The position numbers were made by a program, and so were the translations under genes. Source: an uncultured Candidatus Saccharibacteria bacterium (GTDB taxonomy: Bacteria > Patescibacteriota > Minisyncoccia > Phycocordibacterales > EsbW-18). From it: 64,000 nt of DNA. Positions 4,897 to 60,630 of the stretch are shown in pieces (the stretch's first letter is position 1; every line of letters starts with the position of its first letter). The notes under the pieces were generated by a model. That model was not told where the DNA came from. It saw nothing but the letters and a program-made list of their open reading frames with translations, and made no database searches. The stretch spans positions 50,379 to 114,378 of the forward strand of contig CAZFMQ010000002.1 in assembly GCA_964520295.1 (NCBI GenBank), read 5' to 3'.

Positions 4897-7239
4897 ATGG
4901 CACACACAACAGCGAAGCGCGTAAGCGGCATTACCAAGATTGTAAAACGTAACGGTAGCACGGTTGCGTTTGACAGAGATAAAATTGCCGTTGCTGTTGA
5001 AAAAGCATTACGCGCCGCTGGTGAATATACAAAAGGTGCCCCGGAACAAGTCGCAAAAGCAGTAGAAAAAGCACTTATTGCGCAAAAAAAGGCGCAAAAA
5101 TCATATGTACCGACCGTTGAAGGTGTTCAGGATGCTGTGGAAAAGGAGCTCATGCTTCTAGGTCATACAACTACTGCCAAGGCCTATATTCTCTATCGTG
5201 TAGAACGATCTCGCATTCGCTATGAACAGGGCGAAGTGCCTGAACACGTCAAAAAACTTGCCGAAGAGAGCAAAAAGTACTTTAAAGACAACCCATTGGG
5301 TGAATTTGTCTATTTACGCACGTACGCACGCTGGATTGAATCAGAAAATCGTCGCGAAACATGGGTAGAGACTGTTGATCGTTATATGTCATTCATGCGC
5401 GAAAACCTCGGCAAAAAATTAAAAGACAGCGAATACAGCGAATTGCGCGAAGCAATCCTCAAACAAGAAGTTATGCCATCTATGCGTTTGATGCAGTTTG
5501 CTGGTGAACCTGCACGCCGTTGTAACACCTGTGCATACAACTGCACCTACACCGCAACAACCAAATTGGAGGATTTTGCAGAAATTATGTATCTCTCCAT
5601 GCAGGGTTGTGGTGTTGGATTCACCGTTGAAAGCCAAAATATTGAAAAATTGCCACAGATTCAGAAACAATCAGGTACCGTACTCCCTACCTACACCGTT
5701 GCAGATTCAAAGGAGGGGTGGTGTGATGCACTGACACACGGTCTCAAAACATGGTACAACGGCCAAGATGTAGAGTTTGATTTCTCACAGATTCGTCCAG
5801 CGGGTGCACGCCTCAAAATTATGGGTGGAAAAGCATCAGGACCAGATCCATTGCGTTCCCTACTGGTATTTGCACGCGAAAAGATTTTGCGCCGCCAAGG
5901 TCGTCGCCTGCGCCCCGTTGATGCGCACGACATCATCTGCAAAATTGGTGAATGTGTTGTTGCCGGTGGTGTGCGCCGCACCGCAATGATTTCTCTTTCC
6001 GACTTGGACGATTCTGACATGCGCGATGCAAAAAAGGGACGCTTCTACGTCAATGAACCGTATCGCGTGGTAGCAAACAACTCTGCTGTCTATGAATCAC
6101 AGCCATCAAGTACAGAACTTATGGAGGAGTGGATTGCACTCATGAAAAGTGGTTCGGGAGAGCGCGGTCTGTTCAACCGCGGTTCGCTCTCAAAAAATAT
6201 TCCTGCACGCCGTTTGAAGTATTTACAGGCAAAGGGGCGCGCCACACAGGACGGAGTGATGCTGACGAGCATTGGTACCAATCCATGCGCCGAAATTATT
6301 TTGCAACCAAAACAATTCTGTAATCTCTCCGAGGTAATTGCACGTGCCGGCGATACACAAGAAGAGCTCGTACGCAAAGCACGCCTTGCCTCAATGCTCG
6401 GCACGTACCAATCAACACTAACTAACTTCAAATACATCTCAAAAGAGTGGACTGAAAATTGTCGCGACGAATCGTTGTTGGGCGTATCAGTTACAGGACA
6501 ATGGGATTCCGAAGAGTCACGCAACCCTGCAACGTTGCGTGCAATGCGTGACGTGGCAGTAAAGACAAATGCCACCTACGCAAAACGTTTTGGGGTCAAT
6601 CCATCCACGTCAGTGACTGCGGTAAAACCATCAGGTACGGTATCGCAAACATTCAACTGTGCATCAGGTATTCACCCACGACATGCTGAATACTACATTC
6701 GTCGCGTGCGTATCTCTGCAACCGATTCGCTCTTCCGCATGATGCGCGATCAAGGTGTGCCGGCAGTTCCAGAAGTGGGACAGACCGTAGATAATGCCAC
6801 CACGTATGTTCTTGAGTTCCCTGTAAAATCACCGGAGCACTCAAAGTACAAAGATGATTTTAGTGCTATTGATCAGCTTGAGTATTGGAAAAATATCAAA
6901 CTCAACTACACCGAGCACAATCCATCAGCAACTATCTCTGTGGGCGAAGACGAATGGATTGCCGTTGTAGATTGGATTCAGAAAAACTGGGATATTGTCG
7001 GTGGTCTTTCTTTCCTCCCTCGCTTTGATCACGTGTACCAACTTGCGCCATACGAAACAATTGATAAGAAGCGCTACGATGAGATGGTAGCGGCATTTCC
7101 TAAAATTGATTATGCAAAGTTGGTAACCTACGAAGTTACTGATGGAACCGAACAAAAGCGAGAATTAGCATGCGCCGGCGGTACGTGTGAAATTGAACCA
7201 ATGCCTGAAGAGGCAAAAGTGACAAAGGCAAAAGCGTAA
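4897..7239 (+). CDS. nrdJ: Class II (adenosylcobalamin-dependent) ribonucleotide reductase with N-terminal ATP-cone
   Basis: An ATP-cone N-terminus (KIVKRNGSTVAFDRDKIAVAVEKAL), the class II NPCAEI motif (IGTNPCAEIILQP) and a C-terminal Cys pair (CAGGTCEIEP). Confidence 0.85.
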   Translation: MAHTTAKRVSGITKIVKRNGSTVAFDRDKIAVAVEKALRAAGEYTKGAPEQVAKAVEKALIAQKKAQKSYVPTVEGVQDAVEKELMLLGHTTTAKAYILYRVERSRIRYEQGEVPEHVKKLAEESKKYFKDNPLGEFVYLRTYARWIESENRRETWVETVDRYMSFMRENLGKKLKDSEYSELREAILKQEVMPSMRLMQFAGEPARRCNTCAYNCTYTATTKLEDFAEIMYLSMQGCGVGFTVESQNIEKLPQIQKQSGTVLPTYTVADSKEGWCDALTHGLKTWYNGQDVEFDFSQIRPAGARLKIMGGKASGPDPLRSLLVFAREKILRRQGRRLRPVDAHDIICKIGECVVAGGVRRTAMISLSDLDDSDMRDAKKGRFYVNEPYRVVANNSAVYESQPSSTELMEEWIALMKSGSGERGLFNRGSLSKNIPARRLKYLQAKGRATQDGVMLTSIGTNPCAEIILQPKQFCNLSEVIARAGDTQEELVRKARLASMLGTYQSTLTNFKYISKEWTENCRDESLLGVSVTGQWDSEESRNPATLRAMRDVAVKTNATYAKRFGVNPSTSVTAVKPSGTVSQTFNCASGIHPRHAEYYIRRVRISATDSLFRMMRDQGVPAVPEVGQTVDNATTYVLEFPVKSPEHSKYKDDFSAIDQLEYWKNIKLNYTEHNPSATISVGEDEWIAVVDWIQKNWDIVGGLSFLPRFDHVYQLAPYETIDKKRYDEMVAAFPKIDYAKLVTYEVTDGTEQKRELACAGGTCEIEPMPEEAKVTKAKA

Positions 7240-7241
7240 CT

Positions 7242-7772
7242 ATGCTCTACACCCGCAAAGGTGATGACGGCACATCGGGTTTGTTTGGCACAAAAGAGCG
7301 CTTCCCTAAAAACAGTCCTTTGTATGAAGCGCTCGGGGACGTAGATGAACTCAATTCGTTCATTGGATTGTGTCGCACAAAAGCAGGATCATTGCGTGCT
7401 TTTGACGTATCTGCGGAATTACTCACTGTACAACAATGTTTGTTCATCATACAAGCGGAACTCGCAGGAGCAGATAAACGCATGTCTCAAGCGCATATAG
7501 ACGTCTTGGAGGCAGTTGTGGCGCGCGCCGAAGAACCAATTGGCAATCCACACTCGTTTATTGTGCCCGGCACCACTGAAGCGTCGGCGTTGTTGGATGT
7601 AGCGCGCGTCGTATGCCGACGCGCTGAGCGTTCGGTCATAGCCGCGCGCACTCAAAAAGAGATATCAAAAAGTGCGTATGCGTACCTCAACCGCCTCTCT
7701 AGTTTGCTCTACGCACTCGCCCGTCTTGCCGCTTTTGAGAGCGACACACCAGAGGAAAAACCAACCTACTAG
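7242..7772 (+). CDS. PduO-type ATP:cob(I)alamin adenosyltransferase
   Basis: The N-terminal MLYTRKGDDGTSGLFGTKER...LGDVDELNSFIG matches the PduO/MMAB-type ATR signature. It lies immediately downstream of nrdJ. Confidence 0.8.
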   Translation: MLYTRKGDDGTSGLFGTKERFPKNSPLYEALGDVDELNSFIGLCRTKAGSLRAFDVSAELLTVQQCLFIIQAELAGADKRMSQAHIDVLEAVVARAEEPIGNPHSFIVPGTTEASALLDVARVVCRRAERSVIAARTQKEISKSAYAYLNRLSSLLYALARLAAFESDTPEEKPTY

Positions 7773-8644
7773 AACAATGTGAGTATTTTTTGAATACCTG
7801 CAAGATTCTGTTCCCATTCAATATGTTCGTGTGTGGCAAGTTCAACGGTGATTGCGGGAATGTTGATAGATGCCAACCATCCCTCTGCGTCGCCACTGAT
7901 AGGATATGCATCAAATGTTGAAACGGGAGTATAGCCCGCAGCGTCAGCATATGCCTGCATGAGCGTACGTGTTGTCGGCAAGACACCCCCATGGCATTCA
8001 GATGCGTATACTGCATTTGCTTGACTGTGCCAAAAGACAACTGCAGATGGTGCGAAGGTCGTCACAGCAAAACGAATTGCCTGTGCTTCTGGTTCAGAAA
8101 ATGGTGCCGTACCTGCAGATACTTCTTGCGAACGCCACGTGCTAGTCGGTTGCCACTTGCAATCAAAATTTCGATTGAGGTCTACATCGCGCGCGTTAAA
8201 TCGAGCAGATGCAAGCAGTGTTTGATTTGTTGATGCATCTGCCGCAGTAAAGCGTCCTTCTGTGCCCACTACCTCAACAAGGGCGTCGGGATTTGCAGAT
8301 GGAATAACGACCAATGAAAGATGCGACGGCACAAACGTTGGGTTTGTCGTCAAGTAATCCATGAATGTGTATGCCAACAATGTGCTGTTCCACTCATACC
8401 CGCCGTGCATACCGCCCACAAACATAAGTGTTGTTGAGCCAGTACCATACACGTACGCGGTAATGGGACGACCTTGTACGGATTGCCCGATCTGCTGTTG
8501 GCGCATTGCAGGCACCTCTTGATCCACTGTTGGTGCAACCTCTTCGGGTTTCTGTGTCATGCGATACACAAACACGCCACCGAGTAATAGAAGGATGGCG
8601 AGTATTGTGCCAACGAGGCGAAACCCTAGTCGTGTTGGAAACAT
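7769..8644 (-). CDS. Membrane-anchored M14-family zinc carboxypeptidase-like protein (catalytic residues intact)
   Basis: An N-terminal TM helix, HGGYEW (HxxE zinc ligands), DLNRNFD, a second His (FWHSQ) and a catalytic Glu in ITVELAT. Confidence 0.65.
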   Translation of the reverse strand: MFPTRLGFRLVGTILAILLLLGGVFVYRMTQKPEEVAPTVDQEVPAMRQQQIGQSVQGRPITAYVYGTGSTTLMFVGGMHGGYEWNSTLLAYTFMDYLTTNPTFVPSHLSLVVIPSANPDALVEVVGTEGRFTAADASTNQTLLASARFNARDVDLNRNFDCKWQPTSTWRSQEVSAGTAPFSEPEAQAIRFAVTTFAPSAVVFWHSQANAVYASECHGGVLPTTRTLMQAYADAAGYTPVSTFDAYPISGDAEGWLASINIPAITVELATHEHIEWEQNLAGIQKILTLF

Positions 8645-9543: not shown

Positions 9544-9648
9544 ACTACGTTGTGTTACAAACTATATGGTGACTAAATTACTATACGTTACAGTATACGT
9601 CTCTCTTTTTGGTATGGCTAGTACTTTACAGAGCAGGTATTCCCTGTC

Positions 9649-10305
9649 TTATTTTGCACGCGGCCAGATATGCGCTGCTTTTGGATAGAGTTTTGTGAGC
9701 GGATGTTGCGTGCACTCATGCTTTCGCGCAGGACATATCTGTCTACCATATTCAATAAGGCCATACGTGATGGTGTTCCATTCACTCTTTGGAAACAACT
9801 GCATGAGATCAGCTTCTATTTTCTTTGGATCACGATGTTGTGAAAGACCGAGTTTATTTGAAAATCGAATGACGTGCGTATCCACCGCAATACCCTCATT
9901 GATGCCGAACGCATTTGAAAGCACCACATTTGCTGTTTTGCGCGCAACACCTTTGAGTGTGAGCAACGCTTCCATCGTGTGTGGCACCTTCCCGCCGAAT
10001 TGCTCCTGTACCATTTTTGCAGTTGCCAAAATGTTGCGCGCTTTTGCATTGAAAAATCCTGTTTGGCGAATGTCTTGCGCAAATACTTGTGGATTTGCGT
10101 GCACATAGTCATCCAGTGTCTTGTACTTTTTGAAAAGCGCTTGCGTTACTTCATTTACTTTTTTGTCAGTACACTGCGCCGAAAGAATAACGGCAACAAG
10201 CAGTTCCCATGAATTTTTGTGCCGGAGGGCAATTTTTGCATGAGGAAAAAGTTTTTTCAGTGTTGCTGAAATTTTCTTCGCACGTTCTTTTTGTGCTCTC
10301 GTCAT
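9649..10305 (-). CDS. nth: Endonuclease III-like HhH-GPD DNA glycosylase
   Basis: HhH-GPD motifs (LKGVARKTANVVL, GIAVDTHVIR) with conserved Lys and Asp. Only 2 of the usual 4 Fe-S cysteines are present near the C-terminus. Confidence 0.7.
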   Translation of the reverse strand: MTRAQKERAKKISATLKKLFPHAKIALRHKNSWELLVAVILSAQCTDKKVNEVTQALFKKYKTLDDYVHANPQVFAQDIRQTGFFNAKARNILATAKMVQEQFGGKVPHTMEALLTLKGVARKTANVVLSNAFGINEGIAVDTHVIRFSNKLGLSQHRDPKKIEADLMQLFPKSEWNTITYGLIEYGRQICPARKHECTQHPLTKLYPKAAHIWPRAK

Positions 10306-48471: not shown

Positions 48472-48972
48472 ATGAAAAAAATTGTACAAGTAGGACACAA
48501 AACATTGCGTGCAAAGGCGAAGCCGGTGGCACTCAAAGATATCAGCGGCACACGCATACAAAAAGTGCTCGCAGACATGAAAGAGGCGCTTGCGCGTGAA
48601 GATGACGGTGTGGCAATCGCCGCACCACAAATTGCCGTTTCGTTGCGAATTTTTGTCGTATCAGGAAAAGTATTTCCAAAAAACACGGACGTGGATCGTG
48701 TGTTCATCAATCCCACCATCGTCAACATGTCGCAAGAGCGTGAATGGTTGGAAGAGGGATGTTTGTCAGTGCGTTGGAAATACGGCGAAATCTCTCGTGC
48801 TGAAAAAGCAACCGTTAGTGCATACGATGAACACGGTACGCAATTTACGCTCGGCGCATCGGGATTGCTTGCACAAATCTTCCAGCACGAAATTGACCAT
48901 CTTGATGGCACACTCTTTATAGACAATGCGCGCAACGTGCGTGATATTCCACCACCTGATGACAATGACTAA
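48472..48972 (+). CDS. def: Peptide deformylase
   Basis: The EGCLS motif (EGCLSV) and the HEIDHLDG metal-binding motif. Confidence 0.85.
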   Translation: MKKIVQVGHKTLRAKAKPVALKDISGTRIQKVLADMKEALAREDDGVAIAAPQIAVSLRIFVVSGKVFPKNTDVDRVFINPTIVNMSQEREWLEEGCLSVRWKYGEISRAEKATVSAYDEHGTQFTLGASGLLAQIFQHEIDHLDGTLFIDNARNVRDIPPPDDND

Positions 48973-49834
48973 TCCGCACAATCCTCGTTTCGTTTTTTTT
49001 GGCACACCCGATATTGCTGTTGTGGCACTACAAACCCTGCATGACGCAGGTTTTATTCCTGCACTTATTATTACAGCGCCCGACGCGCGCGTCGGGCGCG
49101 GCCTCGTGCTGACACCATCACCAGCAGCACAGTGGGCAGAGCAACACGCTATCCCCACGCTCAAACCCACAAAACTCTCTGATCTTGCAGTTGCAGATAC
49201 ACTGCGCGCACAACAATTGGAATTGGGAATTGTTGTTGCATACGGAAAAATAATTCCAAAAACACTACTGGATATGCTACCTCGCGGCACGCTCAACATG
49301 CATCCTTCACTATTGCCCCGCCATCGCGGTCCATCGCCCATTGAATCGCAAATTTTGACCGAGACATCCGCACACGATGTTGGTGTGTCCATTATGCTTT
49401 TAGATGAACAAATGGATCACGGCCCTGTGCTCGCGCAAGAAGTTGTAGCTGACGAAATACCTACATGGCCTATGTCGGCCATTGACCTGCGCGCACTGGT
49501 TGCACGCCGTGGTGCACAAGTACTTACACGCACACTACCTGCGTACATAGATGGAACCATTACCCCAACACCACAAGATGACACGCAGGCGACATATTGC
49601 ACACTGATTGCAAAAGAAGATGCACATATTGATTTGCAAGACGACGCACTCACGAATTATCGCAAAATATGTGCGTACGCCGTGTGGCCGCGCGCATTCT
49701 TTTTTGCAGAAAAAAACGGAAAGCGCGTGCGTGTTGTTATCACGCACGCGCACCTAGACGACAACACGCTCATCATTGAGCGTGTTATTCCTGAAGGTAA
49801 AAAAGAAATGTCGTATAGCGACTTTATGCGCTAA
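48965..49834 (+). CDS. fmt: Methionyl-tRNA formyltransferase
   Basis: Formyl-transferase N-domain motifs (FFGTPD, SLLPRHRG) and a C-terminal domain. It overlaps def by 8 nt. Confidence 0.85.
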   Translation: MTNPHNPRFVFFGTPDIAVVALQTLHDAGFIPALIITAPDARVGRGLVLTPSPAAQWAEQHAIPTLKPTKLSDLAVADTLRAQQLELGIVVAYGKIIPKTLLDMLPRGTLNMHPSLLPRHRGPSPIESQILTETSAHDVGVSIMLLDEQMDHGPVLAQEVVADEIPTWPMSAIDLRALVARRGAQVLTRTLPAYIDGTITPTPQDDTQATYCTLIAKEDAHIDLQDDALTNYRKICAYAVWPRAFFFAEKNGKRVRVVITHAHLDDNTLIIERVIPEGKKEMSYSDFMR

Positions 49835-50210
49835 CATCGTCAGTGCCGCCCCCGATACGTCGCACGATATCTTTGAAAATACGTGCACCCTTGCGCCAAC
49901 CCGTCAAACGCTTTCCTTTTCGCTTGCGTAATTCGCCGAGCAAGTCTCCTTGTGCAATATCAATAGCGGCGTAGAGATCATCTTTTTGCGCCACAGCGCG
50001 CAACAGATCACCAGGAAGAGAGAGGTTAATTTCACATCTAAAAATATCTCCTGATTGATGATGGTGTGTTGTTTTGCCAATTTCTACATCTGCTTGCGTG
50101 GCAGTTTCAGAACCAATGAATTTCTCCACTGCTTGCAATTTATCTTCAACATACTGACGTAGTGCAGGAGTAAGTTCCATCCCTGTTGCTTTGAGTGCGA
50201 TATTGATCAT
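49824..50210 (-). CDS. hpf: Ribosome hibernation promoting factor / RaiA (short form)
   Basis: S30AE family: MINIALKATGMELTPALRQYVEDKL... Confidence 0.75.
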   Translation of the reverse strand: MINIALKATGMELTPALRQYVEDKLQAVEKFIGSETATQADVEIGKTTHHHQSGDIFRCEINLSLPGDLLRAVAQKDDLYAAIDIAQGDLLGELRKRKGKRLTGWRKGARIFKDIVRRIGGGTDDVSA

Positions 50211-50250
50211 ACGTGTAGAAAATTAGAACGAATATACATACAGTATAGCA

Positions 50251-50285
50251 AAAGAAAAAACACCGCACGCATAGCGTACGGTGTT
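50251..50285 (-). terminator. Rho-independent terminator (minus strand) downstream of GC-rich small ORF
   Basis: aacaccgcacgc-atag-cgtacggtgtt (10/11 bp stem), followed on the minus strand by ttttttcttttg. Confidence 0.55.
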
Positions 50286-50312
50286 GAGTGTCGAGGGGTA
50301 AGGCGGCGAAGT

Positions 50313-50528
50313 TCAGGCCGTGGTGGCTCTGAGCTCTCCACCGAACAGGTCGGCGGAGAAGAAGCGCGGGCGGCGCTTCTTCGGCTGCGCACCGGTGGGC
50401 GCGCCGAGGCAGGTGCAGGTGGCACCACGAGACGACGAGTTTGCCTCGTCGTCCTGCCGGCGGCGATCCCGCTGACAGGAGAAGCTCTTGTCGCAGTCGC
50501 GGCGGTAGAATTCCTTCTTGCTCGCCAT
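50313..50528 (-). CDS. Small Arg/Cys-rich hypothetical protein (71 aa) in GC-rich insert; alternatively a structured ncRNA
   Basis: SD aaagggga lies upstream of the ATG (MASKKEFYRRDCDKSFSCQ...CTC...). GC is about 65%. Two perfect internal 9-10 bp hairpins sit within the ORF. A terminator lies downstream. Confidence 0.4.
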   Translation of the reverse strand: MASKKEFYRRDCDKSFSCQRDRRRQDDEANSSSRGATCTCLGAPTGAQPKKRRPRFFSADLFGGELRATTA

Positions 50529-50695
50529 CCTATTTCCCCTTTCCAAAAAACAAAAAAGATAACCGTTCATTCGGTTATCTACTATTAACTACAGTATCAG
50601 ATTTATTACTATTTGTCAAGTATACCCTTTTCTTGATTGTCTCTTCTCTGTGCCCCGATACCTTGTTCCCTGCTCCCCATTCCCCTATAAACGTG

Positions 50696-50729
50696 TAAAT
50701 GCCCACACTTGCGTGTGGACATTTACAAG
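50696..50729. promoter_or_regulatory. 15-bp imperfect palindrome in divergent promoter region (candidate operator)
   Basis: tgtaaatgcccacac-ttgc-gtgtggacatttaca (14/15 matches) between the divergent GC-rich small ORF and the GH18 gene. It is flanked by TATA-like boxes. Confidence 0.4.
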
Positions 50730-50853
50730 ACCTAGTATACCCACCTATGGAAACAATGCAATAGAGTTATCCACAATATTATAATAGGACACATTTTTAT
50801 TCTTTTGTAAAATATCTTGAAACTTTTTCTGTTTTACACGCTATACTATATGT

Positions 50854-52056
50854 ATGAATACACTACTAAAAAAAGTATGCGTGGGTCTATGTGCCCTTGC
50901 GCTCTGTGCCATTGCACTACCTACCTTTGCTCAAAAGAAAGATCTCACAGCCGATCTTGAAATATCGGGTTGGATTCCCTATTGGACCCCGACCACAGGA
51001 ACATCCGATGCCCGTAAAAATCTGGATACATTCAGCGTCCTCTTCCCCTTCACGTATTCTGTAAAGAGCGATGGAACTCTTCTTGAAAACGCCGACCTCA
51101 AGAAAAACCCGTGGAAGCGTCTTATTACTGCCGCAAAGAAAAAAGATGTGTTGATTATTCCAACCGTCATGTGGAGCAATACATCAGCAATGCATACCGT
51201 GCTCTCCATACCGCAGATGCGAGAGCAACATATTGATGAAATTGTGAAGATGGTGAAAAAAGGAAAATTTGATGGAGTTGATATTGACTACGAAGGCAAG
51301 TCAGCAGACACATATGCTGCATACGCCACCTTCCTCAAAGAACTCAAAGAAGAGCTCGGCAAAAAACTCATACTCTCATGCACCATTGAAGCGCGTACGC
51401 CACCTGAAAAACTCTACCGTACGATGCCCGCTGATCTGCGCTACGCAAACGACTTCACGGCAATTGCTCAGCACTGTGATCGCGTCAACATCATGACGTA
51501 CGATCAGCAACGCGCCGTATATGCACTCAACGAAACATACACAGGCACACCATACGTACCTATCGCCGATACAGCGTGGGTTCGCGACGTCATTGAACTG
51601 ACCCTCAAAACTATTCCGAAAGAAAAACTCTCACTCGGCATCGCCACCTACGGTCATGAATACGAAGTAGTCGTCTACCCAAACGGCTACATGGAATACG
51701 GGCGCACAGGTGCATTCAATCCTTCATACGGTATCAAAACAGCCAAAAGCAATCGGGTAACGCCTGAGCGCAATATCGCAGGGGAACTCTTTTTCTCATT
51801 CCATGTAAACGATCATGCACCACAGGCAAGAACTGCAGTGTCATACGGCGCATCTGACGCCAATCGTGCATTCGCCCAAAGCAGTGCCTACACACGTGCT
51901 ACGCAAATCCCGTCCGTCTTTTACTACGCAACGTGGAGTGATGCAGAAGCAATTGAGGAAAAAATAGAGCTCGCACGCGAATACGACCTTCGTGGTGTTG
52001 CCATCTTCAAAATAGACGGCAATGAAGACAAGGCACTCTGGAAATTACTCAAGTAA
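50854..52056 (+). CDS. Secreted glycoside hydrolase family 18 (chitinase-like) protein
   Basis: A signal peptide and the GH18 catalytic motif DGVDIDYEG (DxxDxDxE). Confidence 0.7.
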   Translation: MNTLLKKVCVGLCALALCAIALPTFAQKKDLTADLEISGWIPYWTPTTGTSDARKNLDTFSVLFPFTYSVKSDGTLLENADLKKNPWKRLITAAKKKDVLIIPTVMWSNTSAMHTVLSIPQMREQHIDEIVKMVKKGKFDGVDIDYEGKSADTYAAYATFLKELKEELGKKLILSCTIEARTPPEKLYRTMPADLRYANDFTAIAQHCDRVNIMTYDQQRAVYALNETYTGTPYVPIADTAWVRDVIELTLKTIPKEKLSLGIATYGHEYEVVVYPNGYMEYGRTGAFNPSYGIKTAKSNRVTPERNIAGELFFSFHVNDHAPQARTAVSYGASDANRAFAQSSAYTRATQIPSVFYYATWSDAEAIEEKIELAREYDLRGVAIFKIDGNEDKALWKLLK

Positions 52057-60558: not shown

Positions 60559-60630
60559 CTCCGCGGGTAGGATTCGAACCTACGACCAACTCCTTAACAG
60601 GGAGCTGCACTACCGCTGTGCTACCGCGGA
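60559..60630 (-). tRNA. tRNA-Asn (anticodon GUU)
   Basis: The reverse complement folds as a cloverleaf: acceptor UCCGCGG/CCGCGGA, D-arm GCAC-AGCGGUA-GUGC, anticodon stem GCUCC/GGAGU with loop CUGUUAA, T-arm GUAGG-UUCGAAU-CCUAC, discriminator G. Confidence 0.85.

Follow-up and report, generated by a model that had tools for sequence, protein, structure and literature searches.

The 64 kb window of DNA analysed here comes from an uncultured Candidatus Saccharibacteria bacterium, and its minus strand carries, at 50249-50620, a compact unit that is probably an autonomous and unannotated small-protein gene. The gene would belong to a rare orphan family associated with Saccharibacteria, and its messenger RNA (mRNA) appears to have been selected for a hyper-stable fold that probably gates translation. 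It fits no described RNA or protein family; an overlooked small open reading frame (ORF) is of a familiar kind, and the unusual part is an extreme G+C (GC) content at third codon positions (GC3) together with excess RNA structure in a genome of the candidate phyla radiation (CPR). A sigma-70-type promoter is predicted to drive a transcript of ~350 nt that would open with a stem-loop, continue with a Shine-Dalgarno (SD) sequence and an ATG, encode a basic, predicted-disordered protein of 71 residues and end, shortly before hpf, at an intrinsic terminator. The ORF is likely to be translated, judging from its sequence features, and the mRNA, whose synonymous sites are nearly all G or C, folds far more stably than is needed to encode the protein. 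Two pairings are predicted for the ribosome-binding region, of the start with codons 52-59 and of the SD with a CCCCUC that follows the stop codon, and they would sequester it; such a fold may give rise to a long-lived message whose translation is gated.

The GC-rich island and its open reading frame

A sequence-only reading of this DNA had placed a GC-rich island between hpf and GH18, and this placement held. In 200-nt windows the GC content reaches 0.685-0.69 at 50281-50500, the maximum of the entire 64 kb (mean 0.468, standard deviation 0.050), and both neighbours were confirmed by Pfam (hpf/RaiA, PF02482, E 3.4e-18; GH18, PF00704, E 1e-28). The gap between GH18 (50854-52056, plus strand) and hpf (50210-49824, minus strand) is taken up by a compact minus-strand transcription unit. 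Since the island sequence was found identical in two independent Logan assemblies, it is neither an assembly artefact nor a chimera. The hpf protein is 59% identical to that of a Saccharibacteria metagenome-assembled genome (MAG), which places the window in or near Saccharibacteria, and the nearest hpf proteins among 5.8 billion clusters reach only 66% identity, so that the lineage is thinly sampled. The parts of the unit are listed below, the promoter, the SD region and the -10 element of hpf being read from the sequence (MFE, minimum free energy).

50620-50591, minus: putative promoter, C-TTGACA-AA at 50620-50612, -35 hexamer at 50619-50614
50599-50591, minus: -10 element TGATACTGT of this promoter, either an extended -10 (TGn + TACTGT, 17-nt spacer) or GATACT (15-nt spacer)
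50580-50557, minus: 5' stem-loop AGAUAACCG-AAUGAA-CGGUUAUCU, 9 bp, then a U-run at 50557-50545; terminator-like site, present in the MFE and centroid structures
50544-50529, minus: purine-rich SD region GGAAAGGGGAAAUAGG
50528-50313, minus: 71-codon ORF (MASKKEFYRRDCDKSFSCQRDRRRQDDEANSSSRGATCTCLGAPTGAQPKKRRPRFFSADLFGGELRATTA*), ATG at 50528, TGA at 50315-50313
50453-50431, minus: perfect hairpin GACGACGAG-GCAAA-CUCGUCGUC, 9 bp, 5-nt loop, ORF codons 26-33 (DDEANSSS)
50382-50358, minus: perfect hairpin GAAGAAGCGC-CGCCC-GCGCUUCUUC, 10 bp, 5-nt loop, ORF codons 50-57 (KKRRPRFF)
50365-50347, minus: GCUUCUUCUCCGCCGACCU, predicted long-range partner of the start-codon region (50530-50513), RNAduplex -18.1 kcal/mol
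50303-50293, minus: CCUUACCCCUC, predicted anti-SD just 3' of the stop codon, complementary to the SD and paired in the MFE structure
50285-50249, minus: intrinsic terminator, 12-bp stem at 50285-50259, 3-nt loop, T-tract TTTTTCTTTTG running to 50249
50250-50242, minus: candidate extended -10 of hpf's own promoter, TGCTATACT
50210-49824, minus: hpf/raiA (PF02482), the gene that follows on this strand, starting 39 nt past the terminator of the unit

The terminator with its T-tract, the SD with ATG and 71-codon ORF, the four Cys residues of the product (MASKKEFYRRDCDKSFSC...CTC...) and the two perfect internal hairpins had all been noticed from the letters alone, and each was recovered here. A 7-bp hairpin had also been reported just upstream; if this is the stem at 50580-50557, the hairpin is present, but with 9 pairs and with a U-run after it.

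Two diverged relatives of the window ORF were found, and only two. Exhaustive HMMER searching of 1.84 billion cluster representatives returned one protein, P0027 (E 6.8e-4), carried by a 748-nt metagenome contig (L010), with 46% identity to the window product over 63 residues in pairwise BLASTP. Its gene forms a GC island in AT-rich DNA, and TTGACA-16-TATACT precedes the conserved MASKK start by ~65 nt. A third copy was found with an nhmmer profile of the window and L010 DNAs at 734-967 of a Saccharibacteria MAG (L001; identical in L011), where a 77-codon ORF (MANKRNTLHRRDSDKTFRC...), flanked by a TTGACA promoter and 5' stem-loop on one side and a terminator on the other, again makes a GC island in AT-richer DNA. 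No further copies were found in L004-L009, L012-L016, two metagenome scans or two viral scans; a profile search returned P0027 alone, and BLAST of phages and plasmids with the DNAs and proteins gave no match. No family of Pfam, NCBIfam, PHROGs or PADLOC matched any of the three homologues, and the best E value of a PDB profile search was 0.93. The gene downstream differs from copy to copy, being hpf in the window, a VanY-like gene in L001/L011 and a membrane protein gene in L010.

The layout CTTGACAAA...TGATAC / TATACT also precedes the L001 and L010 homologues and an analogous gene in CP064977.1 (L013). The segment 50591-50620 would act as the promoter of the unit; a simple promoter scan did not flag it, because of the spacing and hexamer rules of that scan. 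Both L001 and L010 have a 5' untranslated region (5'UTR) stem-loop at the equivalent place, with stem sequences unrelated to those of the window; the loop AUGAA is common to the window and L010, and the U-run occurs in the window copy only. The L001 and L010 ORFs are likewise followed by terminators, which resemble each other. In public gene calls the L011 locus (7725-8102, minus strand) is given as an antisense ORF of 125 aa, on the wrong strand; nothing is called at 2357-3001 of L002, the contig identical to the window; and P0027 (L010 127-390) carries a 21-residue N-terminal extension.

The evidence for coding was drawn from all three homologues. GC content by codon position was 0.57/0.61/0.83 in the window ORF (chi-square p 1.4e-3), 0.49/0.60/0.87 in the L010 ORF (p 1.8e-5) and 0.56/0.46/0.97 in the L001 ORF (p 6e-12), long host ORFs having a GC3 of 0.45-0.50, and in each case this three-base periodicity is present in the frame fixed by SD and ATG. 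The SD and the start codon are conserved in all three, with GGAGG in L010 and GGAGGG in L001 at the place of the window SD. Similarity corrected for composition was highest in the ORF frame for every pair (z 18.1, 7.6 and 3.6), a frame-blind MAFFT nucleotide alignment opened only gaps of 3 nt within the ORF, and 12 of the 32 residues identical between window and L010 are encoded by different codons. The Arg-Arg of the invariant RRD.DK block is written CGC CGC in the window and AGG AGG in L010, and CGC CGG is also found among the homologues. Two other frames were considered and set aside. An 85-codon ORF from the ATG at 50570 would start in the loop of the 5' hairpin, without an SD, at a site that is not conserved, whereas the MASKK start is. 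A gene on the antisense strand, in the frame that shares third positions with the ORF, scores lower; that frame is open in L001 and L013 and interrupted in the window, where it spans only 51 codons, and its openness elsewhere is a by-product of GC3 richness, that is, of the avoidance of A-ending codons.

The predicted window product has an isoelectric point (pI) of 9.8 and a grand average of hydropathy (GRAVY) of -1.13. The three homologous proteins, of 66-77 residues, are all hydrophilic (pI 9.8-10.2; GRAVY -1.13, -0.90 and -0.32), and share as invariant residues M1, A2, K4, R9, R10, D11, D13, K14, C18, G35, P54, F56, L61 and G63. The product had been described as a small Arg/Cys-rich protein. 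Its protein part is supported by the periodicity, the conserved SD and start, the similarity in frame, the Arg codon switches and the 3-nt gaps, but its Cys-rich part is not, since C18 is the single invariant Cys, C12 being Ser in L001, and Cys richness is thus not a feature of the family. The product is probably disordered according to modelling, and a role in binding nucleic acid or the ribosome may be guessed at from its charge, its disorder and the hpf neighbourhood.

Several observations weigh against a protein-coding gene of this kind. The exact window protein was absent from the 5.8-billion-cluster collection in a word-index search, and no gene caller called the ORF in the identical Logan contig. 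A 71-codon stop-free frame is not rare in DNA of 68% GC (our estimate is ~0.2). Similarity to the L001 protein is limited to ~18 N-terminal residues and an RP.F motif, the advantage of the ORF frame is modest for the pairs that include L001, and the MASKK and FF motifs coincide with a predicted RNA helix and could therefore reflect constraint at the RNA level. AlphaFold2, run on a two-sequence alignment, gave no confident fold (predicted local distance difference test score, pLDDT, 47). Conservation of the ORF with synonymous change had been proposed as a way to settle the matter; synonymous changes were indeed seen, but the ratio of nonsynonymous to synonymous substitution rates (dN/dS) between window and L010 is ~0.59 and weak in absolute terms, and with only three distinct sequences neither dN/dS nor covariation is statistically strong.

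Folding of the minus-strand RNA

A folding energy of -160.6 kcal/mol was computed for the 341-nt RNA of the minus strand, with a z score of -7.6 against dinucleotide shuffles (plus strand, -5.9). The MFE of each ORF was also compared with two kinds of permutation, the hpf genes of the window and of L013 serving as controls.

Window ORF: z -3.8 against synonymous-codon permutation, -5.1 against codon-order shuffle
L010 ORF: z -2.3 against synonymous-codon permutation, -2.8 against codon-order shuffle
L001 ORF: z -2.0 against synonymous-codon permutation, -3.0 against codon-order shuffle
hpf, window: z +0.9 against synonymous-codon permutation, +0.3 against codon-order shuffle
hpf, L013: z -0.45 against synonymous-codon permutation, -2.1 against codon-order shuffle

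The view that such dense structure is abnormal for a coding region was thus confirmed, as the fold exceeds what protein sequence and codon usage account for (z -3.8). That the fold goes beyond synonymous permutations suggests selection on structure alongside coding, and not in its place. A perfect hairpin of at least 9 bp occurs in ~1% of codon-order shuffles of the ORF. The two perfect hairpins fall in the protein-variable middle, the one at 50453-50431 where the homologous proteins show no conservation, and holding the amino-acid order (KKRRPRFF, DDEANSSS) constant raises their probability to P ~0.5. Being likely given the residue order, they suggest that the peptide there follows the RNA, and not the reverse.

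In all three homologues the best predicted partner of the start region AUGGCGAGCAAGAAG is CUUCU(U/G)C at codons 52-59, with predicted duplexes of -18.1, -13.3 and -16.8 kcal/mol. This helix is retained by RNAalifold, and columns 91/260 show one compensatory change (AAGAAG/CUUCUU to AAGCGG/CGCUUCUG). The 3' arm of the hairpin at 50382-50358 overlaps the partner of the start region, and the two pairings are therefore mutually exclusive. The best predicted duplex of the translation initiation region includes the SD/anti-SD pairing and reaches -26.1 kcal/mol. A like arrangement is predicted in L001, where UCCCUCUC just after the stop codon is complementary to that copy's own GGAGGGA, the post-stop segment being CCCCUC in the window and UCCCUC in L001.

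Alternative explanations

Rfam covariance models were applied at gathering thresholds over the 64 kb and at E<=10 over 49900-50900, on both strands, the models for signal recognition particle (SRP) RNA, 6S, tmRNA, RNase P and raiA being assumed to be part of Rfam release 15. At gathering score the sole pass in the 64 kb was a tRNA at 60559-60630, with none in the island. At E<=10 the ~1 kb region gave eight chance-level matches, none of them to SRP, 6S or raiA. The best of these, RAGATH-7, scored 22.1 bits against a gathering score of 111.8 over 50558-50729, mostly outside the island, and was rejected as built on two generic hairpins upstream of it. The islands of L010, L001, L011 and L013 gave no matches. 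A scan of this kind had been named as a check, and no family explains the island. The likeness to SRP RNA helix 8 once suggested for the plus strand was not sustained, the SRP models remaining silent even at E<=10, and the proposal of an unrecognised non-coding RNA (ncRNA) draws support from no Rfam model on either strand.

A structured ncRNA, whether a small RNA or an unrecognised ornate RNA beside raiA/hpf, in which the ORF is incidental to high GC, is nonetheless the kind of element that the very stable fold (z -7.6) calls to mind, its structure exceeding the coding requirement. Such an RNA would suit the perfect hairpins in the protein-variable region, the L010 hairpins at similar places with different sequences, the slight conservation past the stop codon, the unit's own promoter and terminator, the silence of the gene callers, and a place upstream of raiA/hpf that recalls the raiA motif RNA (PMC10861870). 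We consider it unlikely, however, because a GC3 of 0.97 in L001 and 0.83-0.87 in the others, locked to the SD/ATG frame, is unexpected for an ncRNA; moreover the ORF frame is best after correction for composition, SD and ATG are kept in all three copies, Arg-Arg is kept through a change from CGC to AGG where the predicted pairing is broken in L010, and Rfam is silent. Less likely still is a cis-acting leader for the downstream gene, here hpf, in which translation or folding of the leader would set termination at 50285-50249. The three homologues and the L013 gene each lie upstream of a same-strand gene with a terminator between, the end of the window terminator is only 39 nt from the hpf start codon, and the hairpin at 50382-50358 and the start-region helix offer alternative pairings. 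Yet what lies downstream varies (hpf, a VanY-like gene, a membrane protein gene), the stop codon lies 28 nt before the terminator stem, a distance at which a terminating ribosome cannot reach the terminator, and attenuator leader peptides are much shorter; a possible extended -10 for hpf (TGCTATACT) also lies between terminator and hpf, and in relatives hpf is expressed from another leader, which is conserved. A type I toxin-like module, with a toxic peptide, a folded mRNA that closes the ribosome-binding site until processing, and an antisense RNA, would account for an autonomous, unannotated and patchily distributed unit with a hyper-structured mRNA and predicted 5'-3' sequestration of SD and start codon. 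This seems very improbable for a peptide that is hydrophilic and basic (GRAVY -1.13, pI 9.8) and without a hydrophobic helix, no helix being predicted beyond residues 5-10, with no plus-strand promoter-like site for an antisense RNA within 49700-50785 and no match to a toxin family of PADLOC or Pfam.

An explanation compatible with coding is that the composition is a donor's signature, the gene having been acquired recently from elsewhere, for instance from a high-GC actinobacterial host or a mobile element, with GC3 and structure as unselected baggage. GC3 is far above that of the host, and codon adaptation (an index of the codon adaptation index type) is 0.551 against 0.707 +/- 0.040 for the host, about four standard deviations low. 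The position of the unit varies, directly upstream of hpf in the window and upstream of VanY-MamF-DUF167-hpf in L011; it is absent from the closer hpf relatives L004, L009, L012 and L014, and in L013 the same slot is occupied by an unrelated gene with a GC3 of 0.93. Set against this, no donor-side homologue was found among the 1.84 billion representatives, the sole match being P0027, which lies in AT-rich flanks, and the phage and plasmid collections gave no match. The three copies, with ~50% or more protein divergence, each keep extreme GC3 in genomes of GC3 0.45-0.50 and have promoters of AT-rich type; after a single acquisition neutral amelioration should have eroded the GC3, and its persistence therefore counts against a foreign origin. 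In addition, the L001 and L013 proteins are rich in Lys, Glu, Asn and Phe (second-position GC, GC2, 0.39-0.46), unlike high-GC proteomes, and the structure goes beyond synonymous permutations. On balance foreign origin is a possibility to which we give limited credence. Selection on the mRNA as the maintainer of the extreme GC3 is suggested by this persistence, by the native-type promoters, the excess structure and the lack of a donor homologue, and by the L013 gene.

The L013 gene stands in the slot upstream of VanY (7347-8110 of CP064977.1) and has 174 codons, its GC3 of 0.93 lying in a genome of GC3 0.35. A TTGACA-16-TATACT promoter precedes this gene, its long 5'UTR holds a 19-bp inverted repeat, a terminator is present, and its MFE has a z of -5.1 against synonymous permutations; its product is Lys/Glu/Asn-rich (GC2 0.39). 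The 174-aa protein had no Pfam, NCBIfam, PHROG, PADLOC, phage or plasmid match, and its homology to the small-protein family is unsupported (BLASTP E 14). We tentatively raise the idea, which is somewhat doubtful, that Saccharibacteria hold a small native gene class with a GC3 of 0.83-0.97 in genomes of GC3 0.35-0.50, whose mRNAs would be kept hyper-structured by selection and be functional both as fold and as peptide. The window gene would be one member and the L013 gene another, and such messages may, for example, persist through dormancy with their translation gated, or escape AU-directed ribonucleases.

Local history and comparison with known systems

Upstream of the small gene, towards GH18, lie two elements that are not part of it.

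50775-50695, minus: promoter-like region, with a perfect DnaA-box-like TGTGGATAA at 50775-50767, TTGCAT at 50761-50756 (-35) and TATACT at 50739-50734 (-10)
50726-50695, minus: GCAA-tetraloop hairpin GUAAAUGUCCACAC-GCAA-GUGUGGGCAUUUAC, following the promoter-like region

The region 50695-50775 is conserved with the leader of DUF167-hpf in L011 (~9560-9700) and L013 (~9640-9720), and L011 carries a second, similar hairpin. The small gene separates this old leader from hpf in the window, where DUF167 is absent. The U-run at 50557-50545 could end a transcript from the leader, which would then be an RNA of ~180 nt. The weak RAGATH-7 match spans this leader stretch. The L011 neighbours unk125, unk113, VanY, MamF and DUF167 are missing from the whole 64 kb, with GH18 and SET still syntenic, and the distance from GH18 to hpf is 3.1 kb in L011 and 643 nt in the window. 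What remains is the old leader and the small gene, which argues that the gene was retained for a reason. A YtxH-like stress annotation of the L011 neighbours had no Pfam support.

Other features of the locus and its relatives may be recorded here. The convergent ORFs of fmt (48926-49834, plus strand) and hpf (50210-49824, minus strand) overlap by 11 nt at their 3' ends (49824-49834), and a terminator-like minus-strand hairpin lies inside fmt at 49751-49723. After MgtC, a moderately GC-rich stretch (0.52-0.62) is found in L013 (14384-14815), L011 (14406-14726), L012 (~5780-6390) and L014 (~6300-6630); it shows no codon-position GC periodicity and no Rfam match, is uncalled in L013 and is called with differing strand and length elsewhere, and may represent either an RNA particular to the lineage or a small gene with little conservation. 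L014 also has an uncalled GC-rich (~0.60) gap of ~390 nt between hpf and fmt (2044-2367), without clear GC3 periodicity. In L001, ~98 N (2655-2752) stand immediately upstream of DUF167, as a scaffold gap or masked sequence, and L011 supplies the sequence.

Small proteins and the biology of CPR bacteria and Saccharibacteria are poorly charted, and the gene predictions covered here miss or mis-call this locus. If its GC3 and excess folding are selected, it would be a clear case of synonymous-site selection for mRNA structure in a reduced genome; if the composition reflects foreign origin, the locus would mark gene flow into Saccharibacteria from an unsampled donor. Adjacency to a ribosome-hibernation gene suggests a link to the management of dormancy in an epibiont. 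A literature search on codon usage and small RNAs of Saccharibacteria found nothing relevant.

Among known systems the raiA motif RNA is the closest in context. It is a structured ncRNA of Bacillota and Actinomycetota (PMC10861870, PMC5737381) whose hallmarks are six stems (P1-P6) that covary, two pseudoknots and 51 nucleotides of high conservation, and which usually has comFC before it (74%) and raiA after it (66%) (PMC10861870). The unit resembles it in having a terminator of its own and a structured transcript of ~200-350 nt that is rich in GC and lies directly upstream of a same-strand raiA/hpf. However, the unit has no Rfam match even at E<=10, the paired regions, pseudoknots and conserved nucleotides of the raiA RNA are not recognisable in it, and the consensus fold that RNAalifold gives for the three homologues has another architecture, centred on the ORF. 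The unit also has no comFC upstream, GH18 being its other neighbour; in L001 hpf is 2 kb away from the copy, and in L010 the copy is followed by a membrane protein gene. The unit holds a codon-periodic ORF, and its phylum is Saccharibacteria/CPR. With no model match and an hpf context that is not conserved in the homologues, membership of the raiA family was rejected. Horizontally acquired outliers in GC3 and codon usage resemble the unit in off-host GC3 and codon adaptation, variable location and absence from close relatives. They differ in that no donor was found for the unit, that its composition is kept in three deeply diverged copies with excess RNA structure, and that the amino-acid composition of the L001 and L013 proteins is not of high-GC type.

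Type I toxin mRNAs of the hok/sok type are known for long-range sequestration of the ribosome-binding site, and the unit is like them in its overlooked small ORF, its compact mRNA, the predicted pairing of SD and start with a distant 3' segment, and its patchy distribution. In contrast, its predicted product is hydrophilic, basic and disordered and not a membrane peptide, no antisense RNA or promoter was detected for it, and there is no sequence relationship. E. coli Sra/bS22 and actinobacterial bS22 are small, basic, ribosome-associated proteins of stationary phase. Direct homology to E. coli Sra was rejected, hhalign of the family profile giving a probability of 1.2% and the common PTGRK being a chance pentapeptide; the product also differs from these proteins in lacking a Pfam or NCBIfam match, and its binding to ribosomes is a guess. 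What the product and the Sra/bS22 proteins have in common is their size (45-77 aa), high pI and predicted disorder, together with, for the window gene, a place near a hibernation factor.

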